A stretch of 64,000 nucleotides of DNA from a virus (lineage: Duplodnaviria > Caudoviricetes), in the IMG/VR virus record IMGVR_UViG_3300038412_000035, positions 3,628 to 67,627 of that record, one strand, 5' to 3'. Below the pieces are notes generated by a model that was given only the letters and a program-made list of their open reading frames with translations, ran no database searches and had not been told where the DNA came from. Made by a program: the position numbers and the translations under genes. Positions 1 through 29,926 of this stretch are shown piece by piece. Position 1 is the first letter of the stretch. Each line of letters begins with the position of its first letter.

Positions 1-308
1 AATCAAGCTCAGCCTGCGCTAGCTTCTTGTATTCATTCTTTGTCTCTTCACAATCATCACACTTCCACTCAGACAGAGCATCCCGAACCATGTACCATGG
101 CGTTCTGTAGCAATTTGATTCCCCAGTTCGCTCAGAAACGGGGCATCCTTTGCACATGAGCATCTCACCAGTTATGTTTTCGACAAACATCTCGCAAAGA
201 GCGCAATCTTCTCCTTTTATTTTTGCATCATATGGCGTCTCAGCTGCCAAATTTTCCTCCCATTGTTTGATGCTTGTTTTGAGAGCAGTAAGCGTTTTTT
301 TCGTCCAT
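1..308 (-). pseudogene. Cys-rich early protein, paralogue of 383..709; frameshifted at a T7 run and truncated by the window edge
   Basis: ATG at 308 with AGGAGAGG SD. Removing one T from the run at 295-301 gives MDEKTLTALKTSIKQWEENLAAE..CALC..CKGCPV..C..TPWY..ELD, collinear with 383..709. The extra base may be a sequencing error rather than a real lesion. Confidence 0.7.
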
Positions 309-321
309 GGCAGCCTCTCCT

Positions 322-380
322 GGCCTCATCAGCATCCGCCTAACGGATGGACGGCGCACTCTCGCGCGCCGTTTCGGCCT
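322..380 (-). ncRNA. Type II hammerhead ribozyme HH1
   Basis: Minus strand: A-GGCC-GAAA-CGGCGCGC(GAGA)GUGCGCCG-UC / CAUCCG(UUAGG)CGGAUG-CUGAUGA-GGCC; predicted cleavage between 350 and 349. Confidence 0.93.
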
Positions 381-382
381 GC

Positions 383-709
383 TTAGGAAGGGAGAAGAGA
401 CTTGAGGAAATCAAGTTCCTGCTCTGCCCTCTTCTTATACTGCTTCTTTGTTTCATCATTCTTGTAATATTGCCAATTGCCAAGAGCCTTCCACACCTCA
501 TACCATGGTGTCCCGCTACAACTTGACATCCCAGTCTTTTTACTGACCGGGCAACCAACACAGTAGTCATCAATTGGGGAATCATAAAACAAAGTGCAAA
601 GAGGGCAAACATCACCTGATATGTTTGGTTGATCTGGGCTCTCAGCAGCGACATTCGCTTCCCAGTGCTGGATGCTCATCTTAAGAGCAATCAATGTCCT
701 TTCGTCCAT
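383..709 (-). CDS. Cys-rich (CPLC..CVGCP..C) early phage protein, probably Zn-binding
   Basis: Start refined to ATG 709 (SD AGGAGAGG just after HH2); 108 aa. Confidence 0.75.
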   Translation of the reverse strand: MDERTLIALKMSIQHWEANVAAESPDQPNISGDVCPLCTLFYDSPIDDYCVGCPVSKKTGMSSCSGTPWYEVWKALGNWQYYKNDETKKQYKKRAEQELDFLKSLLPS

Positions 710-722
710 GGCAGCCTCTCCT

Positions 723-778
723 GGCCTCATCAGTGCCCGCCTAACGGACAGACGGCGCTTAGCGCGCCGTTTCGGCCT
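723..778 (-). ncRNA. Type II hammerhead ribozyme HH2
   Basis: A-GGCC-GAAA-CGGCGC(GCUAA)GCGCCG-UC / UGUCCG(UUAGG)CGGGCA-CUGAUGA-GGCC; cleavage 751|750. Confidence 0.93.
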
Positions 779-965
779 TTTGTCTGTTGAATAGTTGGAT
801 TTCAATTTTCTCACCGCGCTTATCATGGATTTCAAATGCATCATTCAGAACTTGTTTGATCTTGTGATAGTTATCACTCTCAAATATCTCGCAGATGCTT
901 TTGGCGCCGTTCTCATCAAACAACCACACCACAAGAAGATAATTGAAGATTGGTTCTCTTGGCAT
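759..965 (-). CDS. Hypothetical early protein; C-terminus (KAETAR) encoded by HH2
   Basis: ORF track; GAGG SD; stop TAA lies in the loop of HH2 stem III. Confidence 0.65.
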   Translation of the reverse strand: MPREPIFNYLLVVWLFDENGAKSICEIFESDNYHKIKQVLNDAFEIHDKRGEKIEIQLFNRQKAETAR

Positions 966-974
966 AGCATAACC

Positions 975-1259
975 TCACTGTTTGATCTTGCTCTTGATAA
1001 ATTCCGCTACCTCATCGATCCTTCTGAAGTGAGTGATTGTTCCATTTAACATCCAATCACTGTCAGTTCGGCAAACGCACCATCCACAGTCAGGAGATTC
1101 AGAAGCGACGATGATCGCGAAGAAAGGCTTGCCGTCCTTTTGGACCCACATAGCCTCTGACTCTGCTCTTGGAGCTGTGAGTATGTTTGAAGTGACTCCA
1201 TCACAATCATTGAGATGGTGGCGGAGAATATCGAGGGCATAAATGTAGTTGAACGCCAT
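975..1259 (-). CDS. Hypothetical early protein
   Basis: Start refined to ATG 1259 (AGGAGA SD), MAFNYIY.. Confidence 0.7.
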   Translation of the reverse strand: MAFNYIYALDILRHHLNDCDGVTSNILTAPRAESEAMWVQKDGKPFFAIIVASESPDCGWCVCRTDSDWMLNGTITHFRRIDEVAEFIKSKIKQ

Positions 1260-1273
1260 TGTCTTTCTCCTGT

Positions 1274-1340
1274 TTGAGCCAATCAATCAGCTCAGATACA
1301 GGGCCGCATTCGTGCGGCCCTGCGCTCAACTGACTGAGCT
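1274..1340. other. Intergenic structured element (10-bp hairpin plus two flanking complementary pairs)
   Basis: CAGGGCCGCA-TTCG-TGCGGCCCTG at 1298-1322; AGCTCAG/CTGAGCT (1289-1295/1334-1340); TTGAGC/GCTCAA (1274-1279/1324-1329). Confidence 0.5.
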
Positions 1341-1552
1341 TAGTGGTTGGTTACTCTCTTCACCACCACCCTTTTCCTCATAACCTCCCAGTGGAGGTCT
1401 TTGTTTCTTCCACCTTTGCTGAGGAATTCAGCATACGTGATGCCAGGGTTACGAAGAATGATCTTCATCGAATTGAACCCTAGTGTACCTTCACGTCGTG
1501 GGTTGTGGTCGATACGAGGGAACAGAGCCTTCCCTTCAAAGCTACTCGTCAT
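1340..1552 (-). CDS. Small basic early protein (NPRREGT..GG..DL.W motif)
   Basis: Start refined to ATG 1552 (AGGAGA SD); the longer ORF-track call runs through HH3. Confidence 0.65.
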   Translation of the reverse strand: MTSSFEGKALFPRIDHNPRREGTLGFNSMKIILRNPGITYAEFLSKGGRNKDLHWEVMRKRVVVKRVTNH

Positions 1553-1633
1553 GGTACTCTCCTGTTTCTCTTCAGACAACCCCCACATTCGCCAGGTTGA
1601 TAGCCTGGGCTTTCCCACAGAATCAGCCACCAT

Positions 1634-1692
1634 GGCCTCATCAGCATCCGCATAACGGATGGACGGCGCACTCTCGCGCGCCGTTTCGGCCT
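1634..1692 (-). ncRNA. Type II hammerhead ribozyme HH3
   Basis: 59/60 nt identical to HH1; loop I is UUAUG; cleavage 1662|1661. Confidence 0.93.
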
Positions 1693-1700
1693 TCAATCAT

Positions 1701-2132
1701 TCAATCATTCAATGTTTCTGTGATCTTCTCCGCTTCCTCCGCGATACGCTTTAGGTCGCTGATGCGCTTCTTTATAGCATCAGCATTCCATTGCACCCCA
1801 ACGTGATCATGGTTCACTGCTTCATTGAGCTTTCGAGCGAGCAGCACCCGCTTCTCTTTTTCGCGCTTCATCCTCTTGATTCCATCAATATCGAAGTCCA
1901 GCCACGAGCGGCGATATTTGCTTGGTGATGAGCTGGTATCTTCTCCGTTGATGAATGTTAGCTCGTGGCCGGAAATATCCTGTTTGATCACGATGCTACG
2001 GCAAGTTGGCGAAACAGACTTGACTGTTGCGGCGTAATAGCTGTTATCCCAGCTACCAGGTCTGACCACGAAGACTTCTTGCCCGACGATGGGCCTTTCG
2101 CCCTTCTTCAGGATATCAGAGAGCGTCGTCAT
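1701..2132 (-). CDS. Hypothetical early protein
   Basis: Start ATG 2132 with GGAGG SD. Confidence 0.75.
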   Translation of the reverse strand: MTTLSDILKKGERPIVGQEVFVVRPGSWDNSYYAATVKSVSPTCRSIVIKQDISGHELTFINGEDTSSSPSKYRRSWLDFDIDGIKRMKREKEKRVLLARKLNEAVNHDHVGVQWNADAIKKRISDLKRIAEEAEKITETLND

Positions 2133-2158
2133 ATCTTCCTCCAATCAATCAGCAATCT

Positions 2159-2219
2159 GGCCTCATCAGTGTCCGCCTAACGGACAGACGACGCGCGCGA
2201 GCGCGCGCCGTTTCGGCCT
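2159..2219 (-). ncRNA. Type II hammerhead ribozyme HH4
   Basis: A-GGCC-GAAA-CGGCGCGC(GCUC)GCGCGUCG-UC / UGUCCG(UUAGG)CGGACA-CUGAUGA-GGCC; cleavage 2187|2186. Confidence 0.93.
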
Positions 2220-2704
2220 CAACTATACGCTCCAGGGAACTCAATTCCATCTGCCTCATCTCGCAATTGAGAGACATCTTCTATGAATTGCTGAATGTCG
2301 TCTATTTGGTTCTGTTTCTCTTCATTTTCGTCTTCGGTGGATCCATTGTCTTCGCTTGGTTGGTTGTTCTCGATCCACTCATTGGCAGTGTCGATCACGA
2401 TCTGGAGTGCTTCGACAGCATTGCTTCGCCGATCCGCGCGGGAAAGATTTTTGCGCTGGTTTTCTCGGAATGCTGCCTTTATGCTCTTGATTGCTTCTGG
2501 AACTTCAGGTTTATCCATACAATCAATGGTATTGGCGATCTCACTCAGAGTTTGCATACGCTGAGTGTGTTCGCGCAGCGTACCTTCGGCATTCTCAACC
2601 ACTTCTCTGATCTTATCACCCATATCAGTCATGGTTGAGAAAGCGTAATTAGTCATCTCTTCCAGCGTCATTTCCACAGGCACATTGGACTTTTTCGTCG
2701 CCAT
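2219..2704 (-). CDS. Acidic coiled-coil early protein
   Basis: Start ATG 2704 with AAGGAGA SD; stop TGA abuts HH4. Confidence 0.8.
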   Translation of the reverse strand: MATKKSNVPVEMTLEEMTNYAFSTMTDMGDKIREVVENAEGTLREHTQRMQTLSEIANTIDCMDKPEVPEAIKSIKAAFRENQRKNLSRADRRSNAVEALQIVIDTANEWIENNQPSEDNGSTEDENEEKQNQIDDIQQFIEDVSQLRDEADGIEFPGAYS

Positions 2705-2720
2705 TGTCTTTCTCCTTCTC

Positions 2721-2785
2721 GGCCTCATCAGCGCTCGCCTAACGAGCGGACGGAGCGCAGCGATTGCCGCGCGCCGTTTCGGCCT
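2721..2785 (-). ncRNA. Type II hammerhead ribozyme HH5
   Basis: A-GGCC-GAAA-CGG..extended stem III..CCG-UC / CGCUCG(UUAGG)CGAGCG-CUGAUGA-GGCC; cleavage 2749|2748. Confidence 0.92.
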
Positions 2786-3501
2786 CAGTTGAGCAACCCA
2801 GATACCTTTTGCCCCTCCGCTTCGCGGCGAAGCTTGACGTGATCGCCAGCCTTATGGCCGGCCGCCGATCCGTCTGTCCACTTCCCAATCCCGCCAACTT
2901 TCACAGCCTTCGTTTTGGGATAGGCTTCCATCGCAGCAGCCTCATTTTCGGCTGCTAGTTGTTTGAAGTATCCAACAGGAACCAGCGCCGCGCCTTTAGC
3001 GGATGGCGTCGTGATCTCTCTGATTGATTCCTGAGCTCGATGAAGAACGCGAACAGCACAGGCGACGCGGAATTTATCAACCCAAGCAGACCGATAGTTG
3101 CCTTTCAGGTGAGAGGGAACCAGTGGTTTGTAGAGAAGATTAATCTGCGCCATTATCCAAGCGAAGGTCTCTTCAGTGGCATCCAAATTGTCTGGACGGC
3201 CAATGAATTGGATGCCCTTCAGTCCTTTGCTGTGAAGAATAACCTGACAACCATACAACGCAGCCGCCGCCATAGCGGAATATATCTTCCACTGTATCAT
3301 GCGGTCTGTATTCATGTTGCCGACTTTCGCCTTTGGGCCTGACCCTGTGCCGATCTCATCTTGGTTGATCCCGTGGCGAGCCATCATAACAGCCGCCATC
3401 TGGAGCGCTGTATCGCGCTCGCTCTCTGTCGCTCCTGAGTCCTTGGACCCAACAGCCAGAAGTTTGCGGATCTTGTCATTGATTGTTTCTTGTTTGGTCA
3501 T
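2785..3501 (-). CDS. DUF2786-family protein
   Basis: N-terminal KIRKLLA...ERDTALQMAAVMMARHGI pattern typical of DUF2786; start ATG 3501 with GGAG SD. Confidence 0.75.
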   Translation of the reverse strand: MTKQETINDKIRKLLAVGSKDSGATESERDTALQMAAVMMARHGINQDEIGTGSGPKAKVGNMNTDRMIQWKIYSAMAAAALYGCQVILHSKGLKGIQFIGRPDNLDATEETFAWIMAQINLLYKPLVPSHLKGNYRSAWVDKFRVACAVRVLHRAQESIREITTPSAKGAALVPVGYFKQLAAENEAAAMEAYPKTKAVKVGGIGKWTDGSAAGHKAGDHVKLRREAEGQKVSGLLN

Positions 3502-3513
3502 CACTATCTCCAC

Positions 3514-3569
3514 AGCCTCATCAGTGCCCGCATAACGGACAGACGGCGCGCAGCGCGCCGTTTCGGCTT
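3514..3569 (-). ncRNA. Type II hammerhead ribozyme HH6
   Basis: A-AGCC-GAAA-CGGCGCG(CUG)CGCGCCG-UC / UGUCCG(UUAUG)CGGGCA-CUGAUGA-GGCU; compensatory AGCC/GGCU in stem II; cleavage 3542|3541. Confidence 0.93.
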
Positions 3570-3857
3570 TCAATCAAAGTAAGCGCACAGCGCACGGTCG
3601 TTGCCGTAGCTGATGTTGAAGTAATTCCCTTCCTGCTCAACTGAGGTTGTGTCCTCAGCCTTGAAGTTTAACATTTCCTTCATACGCATCCTGAATGGAA
3701 CGGTGTTTGGTTTAGCGTAGTCGCCACGGCATCCGCAGCGGCAAACACGATCCTTGCCGCGATAAACGGATTTGACCGAATTTGGATCGGCCTTCACTTG
3801 AGCTGCGAAGCGCTCAATGAAGGTGGTGATCTCTTCCTTGTTGGTTATTTCGGTCAT
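3570..3857 (-). CDS. Hypothetical early protein (CRCGC motif)
   Basis: ORF track, GAGGG SD. Confidence 0.75.
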   Translation of the reverse strand: MTEITNKEEITTFIERFAAQVKADPNSVKSVYRGKDRVCRCGCRGDYAKPNTVPFRMRMKEMLNFKAEDTTSVEQEGNYFNISYGNDRALCAYFD

Positions 3858-3876
3858 CTTTCCCTCGCTGGTTGGT

Positions 3877-3932
3877 GGCCTCTTCAGTGCTCGCCTAACG
3901 AGCAGACGGCGCTTAGCGCGCCGTTTCGGCCT
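3877..3932 (-). ncRNA. Type II hammerhead ribozyme HH7
   Basis: A-GGCC-GAAA-CGGCGC(GCUAA)GCGCCG-UC / UGCUCG(UUAGG)CGAGCA-CUGAAGA-GGCC; only the variable N7 position differs; cleavage 3905|3904. Confidence 0.92.
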
Positions 3933-4158
3933 TCAACCAGTGGCGATGATTCAGAGATTGGATGTTCTGTTTCCATCCGTAAGTGCTTTTGTCGTAAAAG
4001 ATACCGTGTGAAACAGTGTCGTAATAAACCGGCTCAACCACATCATCCATCAGGCGCGTAACGTTTGCGCCTGTCTTGTTAGCGCAGTCTTTGATCTTTC
4101 GGACAAGATCAATCAAATCCTGCTCACTAAGAAGCGGTGTGCTTATCTTTTTGGCCAT
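3913..4158 (-). CDS. First gene of the early operon; C-terminus (KAETAR) encoded by HH7
   Basis: Start ATG 4158 (GGAG SD), alternative start 4170. Confidence 0.65.
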   Translation of the reverse strand: MAKKISTPLLSEQDLIDLVRKIKDCANKTGANVTRLMDDVVEPVYYDTVSHGIFYDKSTYGWKQNIQSLNHRHWLKAETAR

Positions 4159-4209
4159 TTCACTCTCCATCGTTTCAACCAAGCGCCAAGTTTGATTGGA
4201 GTTTGGTTG

Positions 4210-4258
4210 AAACAACGAAAGCACCGCCTCGCTTTCGCGAGACGGCGCTTCGTTGTTT
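4210..4258 (-). promoter_or_regulatory. 22-bp RNA hairpin with GAAA tetraloop upstream of the early operon
   Basis: Arms AAACAACGAAGCGCCGUCUCGC / GCGAGGCGGUGCUUUCGUUGUUU; G-U wobbles pair only on the minus strand. Confidence 0.6.
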
Positions 4259-4259
4259 A

Positions 4260-4289
4260 TTTGGAGAAAGTTGCCCTTTTCGTCTGTAC
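4260..4289. repeat. 30-bp element, inverted copy of 63763..63792
   Basis: 27/30 identical to the reverse complement of 63763-63792. Confidence 0.8.
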
Positions 4290-4826
4290 GTGAGAGGTTC
4301 CGAACGTGTTTGCGTCGCCGCCTAGCGAGCGATCTAGCCTTTGGACGGCATCGAAAGCCTGCTTAGGGGTGGCGCCCCGTCGGGTTAGGTCTCGTTTTCA
4401 AACAGCGGGCGGGGATGAACCCCTAGGTGTGTCCTACTCCGAGGGAGCGCGATAACTCACCTGTACCCAGTGTAGCCTCGCGCGTGCGGAAAAGAAATTA
4501 AGCGAAAAAAGGGCGAAAAAACGAATAAAATCAACAGCCCAAATTTCGGCATCGGGCAAAAAAACGGCCCAGTTGCGCCAGTAAAATGCTTATTTTTCAA
4601 CGACTTATGGCACAAGATATTGGCTAATTGACCGATAACTATCAAGCATTTTCGCCCCAAAAAAAGGCGGTTTTTGGCCAATGCTGTTTCCCGGCCCTAG
4701 GACGGCCAAGGACGGCATTCTTGCCCTCTGTGGTATAAACCCTCACAGCGGTCCAAAACCTGCCGCCCTTGGCCGTCCCTGCATTTTACCACACATTTTC
4801 CGCAGGTCTGCCAGGACGCTTTCGGC

Positions 4827-5087
4827 GCTCGCCCTGCCTGGCTCGCCCTGCCCTGCCCTTGGAAAGTTTTTTGCGCCCCGCCCGCCCCGCCCCGCCCGCC
4901 CCGCCCCGCCCCGCCCCGCCCCGCCCCGCCCCGCCCGGCTCGCCCCGCCCCGCCCGCCCCGCCCCGCCCGGCTCGCCCCGCCCGGCCCCGCCCGCCCCGC
5001 CCGGCTCGCCCCGCCCCGCCCGGCTCGCCCCGCCCCGCCCCGCCCCGCCCGCCCCGCCCGGCTCGCCCCGCCCCGCCCGGCTCGCCC
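4827..5087. repeat. C-rich/G-rich degenerate tandem repeat (CGCCC, CCCGGCTCGCCC units)
   Basis: Directly visible; minus strand is G3/G4-run rich; related to 63798..63984. Confidence 0.9.
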
Positions 5088-10328: not shown

Positions 10329-10415
10329 GGAGGGTAGCACCACTGGTGGGTAAGCGGCCTTGAAAACCGTGCCAACCTTGATTGGTTGATGGTTCAATTC
10401 CATTACCCTCCGCCA
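10329..10415 (+). tRNA. tRNA-Ser(UGA)
   Basis: GGAGGGT/ACCCTCC acceptor, CT TGA AA loop, long variable arm, encoded CCA. Confidence 0.88.
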
Positions 10416-12127: not shown

Positions 12128-12327
12128 TGAATCACCAATTCATATATTCTGGATACAGATCAAACATGAAACCGGATATTTGCTTCACAAGCAAAGAGAA
12201 GGCAACTGAATACGATCTGAGTCATGCCCTATCATGGCTTAACATGACGCAGCTACCAGAGTGAGAAGCGAAAACGGGAATGCTACAAGATGACTGTCGT
12301 TTCAGTTGATATAAGCGAGGCAGGTTG

Positions 12328-15300
12328 ATGATCAGGATAAGGACAGGATACTCATTCCGAACAGCATCTGGTCATCTGGATGATGTGATAAATAAGATCA
12401 AAGCGATTGGTTGGTCGCATGCGCCAATCACAGACCGTGGGTCCACCTTCGGATGGGTCCGGTGGAACAAGAGCGCGAAGAAAGCTGGCCTTAAGCCGAT
12501 CTTCGGCGTTGAGCTTGCGGTCTCAGATTCAATCAACGCCAAGAAGCCATCTGTTGATTACTGGACGTTCATCGCCAAGGATTCAGTCCAACCAATCAAT
12601 GAGCTTATCTCGACAGCCACCAATCAGTTCCGTTATCAGCCGCTCTTGAACTATGAGCAGGCGCTGGCCGTCGATGCTTTCAAGATCATCGGCCACCGAT
12701 CAATCATCAATCGCCTTCCTGTCGATAATCGAGATGGCCTGTTCTGGGCGCTTGGGCCGGCTGTGGCGAAAGGCTACGCCAACAAGCTCATCTCATCAGG
12801 CATCCCTCCAATCATGGCCGGTGATAATCGCTACACCAACCCAGAGGGCAAGGGGTTGTGGGAGATTATCTGCGGCCGCAACGCTGAGCGTCAGTCATAT
12901 CCTCAGCACATTCTCGATGAAAGCGAGTGGCGAAGGTCCATCGAGTTCATCGTCAGTGACAAATCAATCATCGATCAGGCGATTGCGAATGCTAGATCGG
13001 TCATAGATGGATCGACAGCAGCCCTCGTTACAGGGAACCTCCTGAAGCCGGAACACCCAAAGCCGCTGTATGATATGTGCGTCGATGGGGCAGCTGAGCT
13101 TAAGGTTGACCTGACTGACCCTGTGTACAAAGAGCGTCTGGACCGTGAGATCAAGCTCATCTATGAGAAGAAGTTTGAGGATTACTTCTACATCGTCTCA
13201 GACATCTGCTGTTTCGCTCGCAAGAACATGCTGGTTGGGCCGGCGCGCGGCTCCAGCTGCGGCAGCCTAGTGTGCTACCTTCTTGGCATAACTCTGGTTG
13301 ATCCGATACCGCACGGACTGATATTTGAGCGCTTCATCGACATCAATCGAAATGACTTGCCTGATATCGACATCGACTTCAGCGATGTTCGTCGCCATCT
13401 GGTGTTTGACTATGTGACAAAGAAGTACGGGGCGGAGCACGTTGCGCGTCTAGGCACAGTCGCGATGTTCAAGCCGAAGTCGGCGCTCCAAGAAGCATCC
13501 GGCGCACTCAATATTCCGAAGTGGAAGTGCGACAACCTCTCTGATACTATGATTGAGAGAAGCTCAGGCGACGCTCGCGCGCTCAATACCCTGGAGGATT
13601 CACTCAAAGAGTTGGCTGCTGGTAAGAAGCTACTAGAAGATCATCCAGAGATCATCAACATCATTCACATGGAAGGCCACCCAAGGCACAGCAGTCAGCA
13701 CGCAGCAGGCATCATCATATCAGACAAACCAGTATCTGAATTCGTCGCTCTCGATCTTCGCACAGGATCAACCATGTGCGATAAGAAAGACGCAGAGGAT
13801 TTGAACCTTCTGAAGATTGATGCCCTCGGCCTCAAGCAGCTTTCGGTGTTTGAAGATACGCTGGAGATGGCCAGCCTTCCGCAGAATACGCTTGAGCATA
13901 TTCCGCTCGATGATCAAGAGGCTTTCGACGTTCTCAACCAGCAGAAGTTCTCAGGCATATTTCAGTTCAATGGGCAAGCGCTTCAATCAATCTCAACTCA
14001 GTTCAAGATTGATCGCTTTGATGACATCGTATCAATCACTGCCCTCGCGCGTCCTGGCCCGCTGGCGTCTGGCGGAGCGATGGAGTGGGTTAAGCGCCGC
14101 AACGGCATGAACCCCATAACCTACGCCCATCCAGTCTTCAAGCCTCATCTTCAAGACACTCTCGGCATCGTATTGTACCAAGAGCAGGTGATGGAGATTG
14201 GTAGGAAGGTTGGCGACCTTGATTGGTCGCAGGTCACTGCCCTGCGAAAGGCAATGAGCAAGAGCCTCGGCAAAGAGTATTTCGACCAGTTCGGCGATCC
14301 ATGGAAGGCCGGCGCCATCGCCAAGGGTGTCGATCCCGAAAAAGCAGAGAAGGTGTGGGATGATCTTTGCGCTTATGGGTCTTGGTGCCTTTCCGGTCAA
14401 ACAAGATTGCGAAATCTATTTACCAACCAGCACAGCAAGGAAGAATTTTTCACAATCAAACAGTTGTATGAAGCAAAAGGCTTTTCCCCATTCAGAACTC
14501 AACCCACAACCAAAAGGCAAAGGATATTGTGCTGGGATGGGAGAGGTCTGAAGCCTGCCGAGACAGTTGATGTTGTGTATTCTGGCAGGAAGGAAACTTG
14601 GTTGGTTGAGGCTTCCAATGGCAATTCAATTCGCGCAACCCTGGATCACAGGTTTCTATGCATTGATGGCGAATATAGAAGCCTGAGAGATATCAAGGTT
14701 GGTGATGATGTAGCTGTTATTGGAGATAGGCAGATAACATCAAGAAAAGCTAAAACAGGAACAGGAAGTGGGAGGCATAACTGGCGTCGTGAGGAATTGG
14801 AAGGAAAGGCATTTTTTAACGGAGTGAGAGGAACAAGGAAGAGAGTCAAGGAAGCGAGCCCAATATGTACAGAATGCGGCTCTTGGCCGACAGAAGAAAT
14901 ACACCACATAGATGGGAATCACAGGGATCACAACCTACACAACCTTCAAGCAGTTTGTCGAAAGTGCCACAAGAAGCTCCATAGAGATTTGTTTGGCCAA
15001 AATCCGAAGCCATATGACAAAGGCCGTGGCATTGAATTTGCTCAAGTAGTGTCAATAAGCAATCCGTTGGTTGAAGACACATATGATATTTCAATGCCTT
15101 GCCCAAACAACAACTTCCTCGCAGAAGATTTCGTCGTTCACAATAGCTTCAATAAGAGCCACGCAGTCGCTTATGGTTACATCTCATATCAATGTTGCTG
15201 GTTGAAGGCGCACTATCCGTTTGAGTTCGCCGCTGCGACGCTCAGCCATGAAGATGATCCCATGAAGCAGATTATGATGCTTCGTGAGATGGCGCTTGAA

Positions 15301-15945
15301 GGATTTGATTACATCCCTGTTGACGCCACAATATCAGAAGACAGGTGGAAGGTTGGTTCCAAGAACGGGCAGCGTGTTCTGGTTGGTCCGCTAAGCAACG
15401 TCAAGGGCATCGGCCCAAAGATGGTGAGCGCGATTATAGGCGCGCGCCGTCGTGGCGAAGCAATCCCTGATCGAGCGGCGAAGCTTCTCTCCAATCCGAA
15501 GACGGACATTGATGCTCTCTTCCCAATCGAAGCCGCAATCAACAAGATCATGCCTGATCCGGCTGAGCGCAATATCTTCACTCCACCAACGATCATCAAG
15601 AACATCGTGCCTGAACTGAAAAAGAAGACATATCTCATATACTGCACACCAACCCGCATCCAGCCTCGCGATGAGAATGAGGCAGTTCTGGTGGCGAAAC
15701 GAGGATATGAGGTGAAAGGCCAGACAGCTTATCTCAATCTTCGATTGACTGATGATACAGATACCGTCTTCGGAAAGGTCAGTCGCTTTGACTTCGACAG
15801 GATTGGAAGAGAGATTGTGGACCGTGGCCGGCCGGGGAAGGCGCTGTATGCGATGAAAGGGACGGTTCAGCTATTCCCAGGGTCAACCTTTCGCGCTTTC
15901 AATGTCTCTTCGATCCGCTACATAGGCGATATGGACAACGCTTGA
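12328..15945 (+). CDS. dnaE: DNA polymerase III alpha subunit, intein-containing
   Basis: PHP domain (ITD..KPIFGVE), GPARGSSCGSLV, PDIDIDF, LLKIDALGL, SFNKSHAVAY. Confidence 0.95.
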   Translation: MIRIRTGYSFRTASGHLDDVINKIKAIGWSHAPITDRGSTFGWVRWNKSAKKAGLKPIFGVELAVSDSINAKKPSVDYWTFIAKDSVQPINELISTATNQFRYQPLLNYEQALAVDAFKIIGHRSIINRLPVDNRDGLFWALGPAVAKGYANKLISSGIPPIMAGDNRYTNPEGKGLWEIICGRNAERQSYPQHILDESEWRRSIEFIVSDKSIIDQAIANARSVIDGSTAALVTGNLLKPEHPKPLYDMCVDGAAELKVDLTDPVYKERLDREIKLIYEKKFEDYFYIVSDICCFARKNMLVGPARGSSCGSLVCYLLGITLVDPIPHGLIFERFIDINRNDLPDIDIDFSDVRRHLVFDYVTKKYGAEHVARLGTVAMFKPKSALQEASGALNIPKWKCDNLSDTMIERSSGDARALNTLEDSLKELAAGKKLLEDHPEIINIIHMEGHPRHSSQHAAGIIISDKPVSEFVALDLRTGSTMCDKKDAEDLNLLKIDALGLKQLSVFEDTLEMASLPQNTLEHIPLDDQEAFDVLNQQKFSGIFQFNGQALQSISTQFKIDRFDDIVSITALARPGPLASGGAMEWVKRRNGMNPITYAHPVFKPHLQDTLGIVLYQEQVMEIGRKVGDLDWSQVTALRKAMSKSLGKEYFDQFGDPWKAGAIAKGVDPEKAEKVWDDLCAYGSWCLSGQTRLRNLFTNQHSKEEFFTIKQLYEAKGFSPFRTQPTTKRQRILCWDGRGLKPAETVDVVYSGRKETWLVEASNGNSIRATLDHRFLCIDGEYRSLRDIKVGDDVAVIGDRQITSRKAKTGTGSGRHNWRREELEGKAFFNGVRGTRKRVKEASPICTECGSWPTEEIHHIDGNHRDHNLHNLQAVCRKCHKKLHRDLFGQNPKPYDKGRGIEFAQVVSISNPLVEDTYDISMPCPNNNFLAEDFVVHNSFNKSHAVAYGYISYQCCWLKAHYPFEFAAATLSHEDDPMKQIMMLREMALEGFDYIPVDATISEDRWKVGSKNGQRVLVGPLSNVKGIGPKMVSAIIGARRRGEAIPDRAAKLLSNPKTDIDALFPIEAAINKIMPDPAERNIFTPPTIIKNIVPELKKKTYLIYCTPTRIQPRDENEAVLVAKRGYEVKGQTAYLNLRLTDDTDTVFGKVSRFDFDRIGREIVDRGRPGKALYAMKGTVQLFPGSTFRAFNVSSIRYIGDMDNA
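14386..15144 (+). mobile_element. 253-aa intein with HNH homing endonuclease
   Basis: W|CLSGQT N-junction; IRATLDH block B; DTYDI..NFLAEDFVVHN|S C-junction; CTECG..EIHHIDGNHRDHNLHNLQAVCRKCH. Confidence 0.93.
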
Positions 15946-27249: not shown

Positions 27250-28025
27250 GCGCGCTCGCTCGCCTTGACCTAGCATTTGATCGGAATATCAAGACGCCTG
27301 CGGGCAATGCCTGGAAGAGGGCGAAGGCGACTGAGCACAGATACGCTCGACAGTTGAGGAAGATCGCTCAGCATGTCAGCGATCTGATCTCAGCCTTCGA
27401 TCCATCTCAACCAGGCGTCACAGAGCAGATCGAAATGCAGCTTGAGCAGTACGCTCAGTTGATTGATCCATGGGCAAAGGCAGTCTCTCAGCGGATGATT
27501 GCTGAGGTGAACTCTCGTGATCGCCAAGCGTGGCGCGAGACTGGTGAGAAGATTGGTCGCAATCTTCGTCGCGAGATTGAAGATGCTCCTGTTGGGAGAG
27601 TGATGCGTGAGTTGCTTGATGAGCAAACATCGCTCATCACCAGCATCCCGCGAAAGGCCGCTGAGCGAGTGCGGGCTGTTACTCTCAAGGGGATCAGCGA
27701 AGGTCTGCGGCCGGCTGCGTATGTCGATGACATCATGCGCACAGGCCATGTAACGAAGTCGCGAGCGACTTTGATTGCTCGCACAGAAGTCGCTCGCACA
27801 GCGTCGATGCTCACTCAAGTGAGAGCAGAAAGCGTTGGTGCTACTCACTATATTTGGACAACGGCTGGCGACAGCAATGTTCGTCCATCGCACAAGAAGC
27901 TCAATGGCAAGGTGTTTGCGTTTGCCGATCCGCCTGTTTGTGATCCGCCTGACCACCGCGCAAACCCAGGCCAGATATGGAACTGCCGATGCATCGCTCG
28001 CCCAATCATTCCAGAGATTGATTGA
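27246..28025 (+). CDS. Head morphogenesis protein (SPP1 gp7/MuF)
   Basis: RATLIARTE..YIW.TAGD..VRPSH..PGQIWNCRC. Confidence 0.9.
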   Translation: MSALARLDLAFDRNIKTPAGNAWKRAKATEHRYARQLRKIAQHVSDLISAFDPSQPGVTEQIEMQLEQYAQLIDPWAKAVSQRMIAEVNSRDRQAWRETGEKIGRNLRREIEDAPVGRVMRELLDEQTSLITSIPRKAAERVRAVTLKGISEGLRPAAYVDDIMRTGHVTKSRATLIARTEVARTASMLTQVRAESVGATHYIWTTAGDSNVRPSHKKLNGKVFAFADPPVCDPPDHRANPGQIWNCRCIARPIIPEID

Positions 28026-29926
28026 TGCCTCTGAAGAGCGGCTCATCTCATGAAGCCATATCAGCGAACATCGCTGAGTTGATTCGCGCTGGCCACCCGC
28101 AGAAGCAGGCTGAGGCTATCGCCTTCGCTCACGCGCGCGGCGACGCTTACAAGGAACCAAAGACAGCGGCCGGCATCGTCTTTCAGAATGATGATGGTGA
28201 AGTTCTGCTTCTGAAGCGTTCAACCAAAGAGAAGAATTACGCCAAACATTGGTCACTTCCTGGCGGAGGAAGCGACGATGGTGAGTCACCAGAAGAGACG
28301 GCGCGGCGCGAGACGCGCGAGGAAACAGGATACAACCCCACAGGCAGCCTTGAGCCTTTGTCGAGGCGAGTGTCGCCGACAGGCATTCAGTATCACACAT
28401 TCCGTGCTCGTGTATCAGACAAGTTCCAACCAGAGTTGAATGAAGAGCACGATGACTTTGGTTGGTTCTCACCTGATGATCTGCCTTCGCCGATGCACCC
28501 ATCAGTGAAAGCTGTTTTGGATGAGCACATGAAGAAGGCGATGGACAATCAAACAGATGCGATGGACAGCATCGCGCTTGATGTGTCTGTTCGGTCATTT
28601 GATACAGATGGCCACCTTCACATTGAGACAGCAAACATCAGCCGCGCTGCGGTCAATGGTTACTATGGGCGCGAAATCCCTGGCGGAGCGGCGCGCGGCC
28701 TAGAGCCAGACAGGCTGTACAAGCTGTTCCGCGATCCGAATGAGTTGGAGAAGGCTGCGCCATCCTTCGCCGGCAAGCCGATCCTCATCACTCATACACC
28801 AGCAGACGCTGACGCTCATCCATTCAACAAGGTTGTTGGTTCCATAGGAAATGACGTCAGATTTGAGACGCCATTTCTGAAGGCATCTCTCTCAATCTGG
28901 CCTCGCGAGGCGATTGATGGGATTGAGAGCGGCGCGCGCCGCGCGCTGTCTTGTGGATACCGCTATGTTCCTGTGTGGGAGCCTGGCGTGTTTGAAGGCG
29001 AGCCATATGACGCTCGCATGACTGAGATCGAGGGCAACCACCTTGCCCTTGTGGCGGAGGGCCGCGCTGGGCCTGATGTGATAATCGGCGACCATCAACC
29101 AAAGGAAGGCAACTGCCCTCCCCAAATGGAGATGAATATGTCTGCAATTGTTCTTTCTCGCAAGGCCAATCTCGTTCACGGCGCGGTGATTGGTTATGTC
29201 AAGCCACTGCTCGCCGGTGATTCGCTGCTTGATCTGACGAGTGCGTTCACAGGCATCAATCACTCAAACTTCGTCTCTTCTCGGCCAACCATTGCTGGCG
29301 CAATCGCTGAGAAGCTCAACGGCAAGCTCGCCTCTGGCAAGGCGCTCGATGGCCTTCCTGCCTTCCTCGCGGCATTCGACGCCATGAACCCGGCTGAGGA
29401 TGAAGAGGAAAATGACGACGACAAGCGCAAGCGCGAAGAGGAAGAGAAGAAGGCCAAGGACAAGCGCGCGAAGGACGCCGAAGAGGAAGAGAAGCGCGAA
29501 GAGGAAGAGAAGAAGGCCAAGGACAAGCGCGCGAAGGACGCTGAGGAAGAAGAAGAGAAGCGCAAGGAAAAGGCCATGGACGCGGCGATTCAGAAGTCAA
29601 CTGAGGCCGCTGCGAAGGCAGCTGAGGATCATGTGATTGCTCGCTTCAAAGAGCGCGACGCGGCGCGTGAGTTGGTTGAATCGGCGTTCGGCAAGTTCCA
29701 GGCATTCGACAGCGCTGAGGAATACTATCGCGCTGGCCTGAAGGCTTTGAATGTGGCCGGCACTGATGAGCTTCCTGTCGCAGCTCTCAAGACAACCTTC
29801 GCCGCTGTCGCGAAGATCGCCAAGGAAAGCGCGCCGCGCGTCAATCCCGTCAACCAGGCGATGGACGCTTCGGCCAATAAGGCTTACAATGAGCGCTTCC
29901 CTCATGCCAATCGGCTGATGAAGTAA
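28025..29926 (+). CDS. NUDIX hydrolase-DUF2213 head maturation protease/scaffold fusion
   Basis: NUDIX box GGGSDDGESPEETARRETREETG; DUF2213 LSCGY..GNHLALV..GRAG; KE-rich scaffold tail. Confidence 0.85.
   Translation: MPLKSGSSHEAISANIAELIRAGHPQKQAEAIAFAHARGDAYKEPKTAAGIVFQNDDGEVLLLKRSTKEKNYAKHWSLPGGGSDDGESPEETARRETREETGYNPTGSLEPLSRRVSPTGIQYHTFRARVSDKFQPELNEEHDDFGWFSPDDLPSPMHPSVKAVLDEHMKKAMDNQTDAMDSIALDVSVRSFDTDGHLHIETANISRAAVNGYYGREIPGGAARGLEPDRLYKLFRDPNELEKAAPSFAGKPILITHTPADADAHPFNKVVGSIGNDVRFETPFLKASLSIWPREAIDGIESGARRALSCGYRYVPVWEPGVFEGEPYDARMTEIEGNHLALVAEGRAGPDVIIGDHQPKEGNCPPQMEMNMSAIVLSRKANLVHGAVIGYVKPLLAGDSLLDLTSAFTGINHSNFVSSRPTIAGAIAEKLNGKLASGKALDGLPAFLAAFDAMNPAEDEEENDDDKRKREEEEKKAKDKRAKDAEEEEKREEEEKKAKDKRAKDAEEEEEKRKEKAMDAAIQKSTEAAAKAAEDHVIARFKERDAARELVESAFGKFQAFDSAEEYYRAGLKALNVAGTDELPVAALKTTFAAVAKIAKESAPRVNPVNQAMDASANKAYNERFPHANRLMK

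Follow-up and report, generated by a model that had tools for sequence, protein, structure and literature searches.

The stretch of DNA analysed here (64,000 nt, called the window below) comprises bases 3628–67627 of the 67,627-bp IMG/VR virus record IMGVR_UViG_3300038412_000035, whose CheckV completeness is 95%. The same record encodes terminase, portal, head protease, tail sheath, tape measure, DnaE-like polymerase, primase and helicase, and is that of an uncultivated tailed phage with a contractile tail. At the left end of the window lies a leftward operon of small genes, most of whose junctions hold a motif that, judged from its sequence, is a real type II hammerhead ribozyme; the operon genes and all the hammerheads are on the minus strand. 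The preliminary description of this DNA had reported an array of seven such ribozymes at gene junctions. All seven were recovered at their places in a covariance search with the Rfam Hammerhead_II model, and searching the whole record raised the number to 11 in ~5 kb (genome 2574–7560), the four extra copies lying to the left of the window at genome 3542–3600, 3289–3350, 2811–2876 and 2574–2639. Ten of the 12 junctions between genes gA and gN carry a hammerhead; the junctions gF/gG and gG/gH are free of ribozymes, leaving one unit that holds three genes.

Genes and ribozymes alternate as follows, where ribozyme coordinates are the outer ends of stem II, scores are against RF02276 (the Rfam family) or our own model R1, and cuts are predicted. 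The first operon gene, gA (3913–4158; 81 aa; taken from the open reading frame (ORF) map, with no Pfam or PHROG match), precedes HH01 (3877–3931; cut 3905/3904; RF02276 37.3 bits, R1 79 bits), which has the gA stop codon (3913–3915) in its stem III loop. Then come gB (3570–3857; 95 aa; weak match to phrog_5930) and HH02 (3514–3568; cut 3542/3541; RF02276 39.3 bits), with an A-U pair in stem II where the other copies have G-C. After gC (2785–3501; 238 aa; DUF2786 and DUF7168, phrog_421) lies HH03 (2721–2784; cut 2749/2748; RF02276 29.7 bits, R1 77 bits), with a long stem III that has one mismatch. Neither gD (2219–2704; 161 aa) nor gE (1701–2132; 143 aa) has a family match; they are followed respectively by HH04 (2159–2218; cut 2187/2186; RF02276 28.2 bits, R1 81.4 bits) and HH05 (1634–1691; cut 1662/1661; RF02276 30 bits, R1 87.8 bits), the latter with 109 nt to the next start. 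The three-gene unit (759–1552) consists of gF (1340–1552), gG (975–1259) and gH (759–965), and the gH stop codon (759–761) falls in the stem III loop of HH06 (723–777; cut 751/750; RF02276 38.3 bits). HH07 (322–379; cut 350/349; RF02276 32.4 bits, R1 87.2 bits) separates gI (383–709; 108 aa), a Cys-rich protein whose look-alikes are phage proteins of unknown function, from its Cys-rich paralogue gJ (1–308; 52% identity), which continues past the window edge. Downstream of the last ribozyme, gN encodes DUF932. The genes between the ribozymes are thus mostly without a family, gC, gN and the paralogues gI/gJ being the exceptions; DUF2786 and DUF932 occur typically in the accessory regions of phages and conjugative elements.

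The gathering score of Hammerhead_II (RF02276, Rfam 15) is 37 bits. Three of the copies score 37.3–39.3 bits, one 36.1 and seven 21.2–32.4, and the four window copies below the gathering score (28.2–32.4 bits) have E values of 0.011–0.14 for the whole 64-kb window. These low scores come from the tail and loops, which depart from the consensus, and not from the core. A strict core-plus-spacing pattern gave seven matches in the window, all on the minus strand, versus 0.00 in 100 dinucleotide shuffles. No ribozyme of another class (among them twister, pistol and hatchet) was matched in the record at E up to 1.

Each copy reads, in order, stem II 5' strand, GAAA, stem III hairpin, GUC, stem I hairpin, CUGAUGA, stem II 3' strand. 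Loops cap both stem I and stem III, and stem II is open; order, core and topology all agree with the type II assignment made in the preliminary description. The 5' strand of stem II is GGCC (once AGCC), stem III is GC-rich, and stem I has 6–7 bp. Core bases (C3 U4 G5 A6 N7 G8 A9, G12 A13 A14, A15.1-U16.1, H17) are canonical in 7/7 window copies, which read CUGAUGA or, once, CUGAAGA; this bears out the invariant core reported for those seven. In the genome the canonical count is 9/11, the two most distal copies reading CCGAUGA (U4C); all 11 have GUC as their cleavage triplet. Folded in isolation, every copy has the hammerhead three-way junction as its minimum-energy structure. In 4/11 copies the conserved A on the 5' side of stem II is simply where the TAA or TGA stop codon of the upstream gene ends. 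A loop1–loop2 A-U contact had also been proposed for these ribozymes; this is conjecture, since loop II does not exist in a type II hammerhead.

The helices are preserved by compensatory change. Across the 11 copies, 96.7% of alignment cells pair and five pairs show such change; it occurs at four of the six pairs of stem I, and the outer pair of stem II appears as G-C and as A-U, with G-U as an intermediate. The covariation reported earlier for stems I and II therefore stands, as does the pairing of stem III; the 5' strand of stem III is invariant, however, and no two-sided change is found there within the genome. Overall the copies are 81% alike, with a 16-nt invariant block at the 5' end and an 11-nt nearly invariant block at the 3' end.

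Relatives of these ribozymes were sought in IMG/VR. A 15-nt exact pattern was dropped because it gave mostly chance GC-rich matches, and a structured pattern was used instead; this placed the same subfamily in 23 stretches from 22 contigs, in which a covariance model built from our 11 copies found 32 copies. The core is invariant in nearly all of the resulting 43, one foreign copy having a GUA cleavage site and a variant 3' core. In the 43-copy alignment (23 viral contigs), which was fitted to the model and includes some members chosen with a pattern in which stems II and III are partly fixed, 96.6% of cells pair, 15 of 19 pairs show compensatory change, none of 500 shuffles reaches the observed score, and slid registers give only 30–46% pairing. 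Arrays of this kind are not peculiar to the present phage: five other viral records have three to six copies each. In bacterial genomes, matches to the subfamily were scattered over many phyla and gave no clue to the host. Another viral contig (L056:10968–11001, plus strand) has two hammerheads only 33 nt apart, which enclose a Shine-Dalgarno site and then ATG TAA, a start-stop mini-ORF.

The ribozymes are part of a regular module, in the order stop codon, ribozyme, ribosome-binding site, start codon. The upstream stop codon ends exactly at stem II (0 nt before it) in four copies, 1 nt before it in two, 3 nt in two and 9 nt in one; in the remaining two it lies inside the stem III loop, and both of those ORFs end in ..KAETAR. 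Because the predicted cut is 3' of the stop codon in all 11 copies, the upstream message would keep its stop. Within 10–30 nt of stem II come a Shine-Dalgarno-like run and a start codon (except after HH05), and the distance from predicted cut to start codon is 39–56 nt over the 11 copies (109 nt in one). Recomputing the cut sites, fragment sizes and cut-to-ATG distances in the window (40–54 nt, and again 109 nt for one) reproduced the values of the preliminary description. From proximal to distal, the predicted internal units are 363, 793, 562, 525, 911, 401, 405, 253, 478 and 237 nt long. The punctuation extends to the related hammerheads of other phages: in 28 of the 32 foreign copies, an open frame at least 40 codons long has its end between −4 and +1 nt of stem II (a random-position control, measured with a wider window, gave 12%), and a Shine-Dalgarno motif plus start codon occurs within 45 nt in 22 of the 32, versus 19% at random. 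This stop-codon phasing is a concrete and testable design rule.

The array most likely serves to let the leftward polycistronic RNA cleave itself into mRNAs of one or three genes, a function that we consider probable with good confidence from the sequence features above. Each motif would fold during transcription into three helices around the core and cut after GUC, turning the polycistronic transcript into ten internal units of 237–911 nt, nine of them with one gene and one with three. The upstream product of each cut would retain its own stop codon and have the stem III hairpin and a 2',3'-cyclic phosphate at its end, while the downstream product would start with a 5'-OH and the stem I hairpin, ahead of its start codon. 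The likely benefit would be that the lifetime and translation of each gene's mRNA become independent of its neighbours. Cutting is a fitting prediction because core, fold, covariation, strand and placement agree; the self-processing suggested in the preliminary description is compatible with all five and coincides with a hypothesis already in the literature (below). That the operon is an early one, as was also suggested, is plausible and fits the layout. Independence from host nucleases, and stabilisation of the products by their 5'-OH and cyclic-phosphate ends, were likewise put forward there and are hypothetical.

Several points weigh against self-cleavage as the function. What was observed is the sequence, its fold and covariation, the placement of the copies and their recurrence in other phages, from which we infer cleavage in vivo and its consequences. 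The gathering score is reached by only 3 of the 11 copies. Within the genome, the covariation amounts to few independent events, because the copies are 81% alike. The pseudoknot between loop I and the 3' tail, which most type II hammerheads use for fast cleavage (PMC3088659), is absent, the best complementarity there being 3–5 nt and not conserved among copies; this does not exclude type II membership, since ~60% of hammerheads overall lack it (PMC3088659). Two copies carry U4C, a known natural variant that considerably reduces in vitro activity yet supports viroid infectivity (Perreault et al. 2011, PMC3088659), and these two are probably slower. When 60-nt native flanks are included, equilibrium folding often loses the 4-bp stem II to other pairings, so efficiency may hinge on whether the RNA folds as it is transcribed and whether ribosomes clear the flank upstream. 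Lastly, no convincing sigma-70 promoter was found upstream of gA.

Some of these points lead to a variant in which cleavage is conditional, terminating ribosomes and flanking RNA deciding when each ribozyme folds, and the U4C copies being slow; translation would then tune the processing, which would vary from copy to copy. Regulated cleavage was raised for phage hammerheads by Perreault et al. (PMC3088659), and the close fit of stop codon to ribozyme could be read in this way, with the stop ending 0–3 nt from stem II in 8/11 copies and lying inside the stem III loop in two, and with the same phasing in 28/32 foreign copies. The short stem II, easily outcompeted by flanks in folding models, and the presence of U4C variants point in the same direction. 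Tight packing may, however, merely be genome economy, and equilibrium folding leaves out tertiary contacts and folding kinetics; we regard conditional cleavage as a minor possibility, the strongest among the alternatives to simple processing.

The repeats might instead act mainly at the DNA level, as short homologies that recombine and thereby duplicate, delete or swap gene cassettes, ribozyme activity being secondary or a means for the element to persist as a selfish intergenic repeat. The 81% identity of the copies and their conserved end blocks (16 nt invariant, 11 nt nearly so) would suit such a role, as would the differing combinations in which stem I and stem III types occur and the presence of the same subfamily in unrelated viral contigs as well as prophage-like DNA from many phyla. 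The leaders of the paralogues gI and gJ are identical and follow two hammerheads with different stems I and III, a pattern suggestive of a crossover within the motif. Recombination sites, however, would need no conserved catalytic core, and here compensatory changes preserve pairing of the RNA helices, while every copy is on the sense strand, held in place by a stop codon on one side and a ribosome-binding site on the other. We think it improbable that the DNA-level role is the main one, although it and the ribozyme role do not exclude each other. The motifs might also be inactive relics, the transcript being shaped by host RNases or not processed at all; they lack a recognised tertiary contact and include two core variants. 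Nine perfect cores, compensated helices and a placement conserved across unrelated phages are unlike decaying sequence, and of all the readings we find this one the hardest to credit. Very doubtful too, though a shade less so, is that excised units are rejoined via a chimeric stem II, by the reverse reaction or an RtcB-type ligase, into circular or spliced RNAs. Each unit would end in a 2',3'-cyclic phosphate and begin with a 5'-OH, ends that are the substrates of such ligation, and neighbouring stem II strands are almost all the same 4-nt palindrome, making chimeric pairing possible. But a 4-bp helix is weak for closing a loop of 237–911 nt, and the sole covariation in stem II (the A-U pair of HH02) keeps pairing within the ribozyme and would mismatch HH01 in a chimera. 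Circular or spliced products have moreover been sought from such arrays and none found (Perreault et al., PMC3088659). That null result and the intra-ribozyme covariation both lean against closure of the units into circular, translatable mRNAs, by the reverse reaction or a host RtcB-type ligase, which likewise has a very slim chance.

Existing transcript data leave processing where it was. In a mine-drainage metatranscriptome (X2), nine identical contigs fall on genome 561–8060 at depth 4–9, and none spans a cut site. These contigs show neither ends nor strand, DNA carry-over in the RNA library is possible, and DNA contigs of the probable source run also break at the hammerhead repeats, so the X2 contigs are no evidence either for or against cleavage.

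The arrangement can be compared with several known systems. The early polycistronic RNA of phage T7 is reportedly processed by RNase III, as Dunn and Studier are said to have found. There too, intercistronic hairpins are cut to give single-gene mRNAs with structured ends; in T7 the enzyme is a host protein and leaves 5'-phosphate and 3'-OH ends, whereas here the RNA is predicted to cut itself and to leave 5'-OH and 2',3'-cyclic phosphate. RiboJ is a synthetic ribozyme insulator, reportedly from Lou et al. in 2012. It shares with the present copies a hammerhead just upstream of the ribosome-binding site that strips off upstream RNA context and leaves a 5' hairpin, but it is engineered, of type III, derived from a plant satellite RNA and used singly, in contrast to a natural type II array. 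With the type II family RF02276 our copies have in common the core, three helices, topology, GUC site and conserved A on the 5' side of stem II; they differ in having no conserved pseudoknot with the 3' tail, in the 8/11 copies below the gathering cut-off and in the two U4C variants.

The closest precedent is that of Perreault et al. 2011 (PLoS Comput Biol, PMC3088659), who reported prophage genes, singly or in short blocks, flanked by multiple hammerheads; it refutes the claim of the preliminary description that a ribozyme-punctuated phage operon had not been described before. Processing of phage transcripts into single-gene mRNAs was proposed there; three triple arrays were cleaved completely in vitro, and an Agrobacterium array was cleaved in E. 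coli (PMC3088659). As in those clusters, several gene-strand hammerheads flank phage genes, and the intervening genes are variable and mostly uncharacterised. The differences are that here 11 copies occur in ~5 kb (versus the triple arrays tested there), that all are type II of one subfamily with the stop codon fused to the ribozyme, that the common loop I/3'-tail pseudoknot is missing, and that no prophage context such as an integrase turned up (no search was aimed at one). The layout has therefore been known in prophages since 2011, and the present array is a large, clean example and no new kind of system. What it adds is the regular stop–ribozyme–ribosome-binding-site module that generalises to related phages, the two distal U4C copies and the lack of a recognisable pseudoknot. 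A 2019 review (PMC6765202) repeats the processing hypothesis and calls the role of hammerheads in bacterial and phage DNA elusive, and a 2026 paper (PMC13725137) still does so for bacterial and phage hammerheads. Eleven near-identical ribozymes in a fixed module, two of them natural variants with a slow core, together with one three-gene block that lacks ribozymes, would be a convenient system for experiments; with it one could learn whether punctuation by ribozymes governs mRNA stability, makes the translation of neighbours independent, or reacts to translation.

Close relatives of the phage were sought so that the array could be compared from genome to genome, and none was found in DNA, protein or terminase searches: window 1–4500 has no DNA match among GenBank phages, gC and a neighbouring gp34-like gene have no protein relatives in IMG/VR, and the best terminase match is 48% identical, with no close cultured relative.

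We note some peculiarities of the operon itself. (i) The hammerhead-free junction between gF and gG has a GC-rich hairpin nested in a longer stem (1297–1338, minus strand), without a U-tract, which could be a stabiliser or an RNase site. (ii) The ATG of gJ is shifted by one base against the frame of the rest of the gene, at a run of seven A (window 296–308, minus strand, the run near 296–302); with six A instead of seven, gJ would read like its paralogue gI. The frame break may reflect a pseudogene, a homopolymer error or slippage, and the DNA contigs of sequencing run X1, probably the source sample, show no variant at these A residues. (iii) Upstream of gA lies a non-coding stretch (4215–4440, minus strand) with a strong fold (z = −5.4) and no Rfam match, ending just before gA in a terminator-like 22-bp hairpin and then U-rich run (4262–4215). 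One metatranscriptome contig spans 4301–4433, inside this stretch, which could be a leader, an attenuator or a small RNA. (iv) The leftward ribozyme operon is separated from the rightward genes by ~1.2 kb of non-coding DNA, which contains ~210 bp of tandem CGCCC-type units (4874–5087; 43 copies, period 5, 82% matches), with the G-rich runs on the minus strand. Possible roles for this repeat are those of an origin, an end signal or a control element.

Elsewhere in the window, an 83-nt element on the plus strand between tRNA-Thr and tRNA-Pro (10329–10411) matches tRNA-Sec at 41 bits, below the cut-off, and was not called by ARAGORN; by eye it resembles a Ser-like tRNA with a long variable arm and a UGA anticodon. 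The DNA polymerase ORF (12325–15945, plus strand; 1206 aa) has HNH-endonuclease matches at residues ~808–889, and their presence suggests an inserted homing endonuclease or an intein-like segment. At 28022–29926 (plus strand), a NUDIX hydrolase domain (residues ~41–179) is fused ahead of the head maturation protease.

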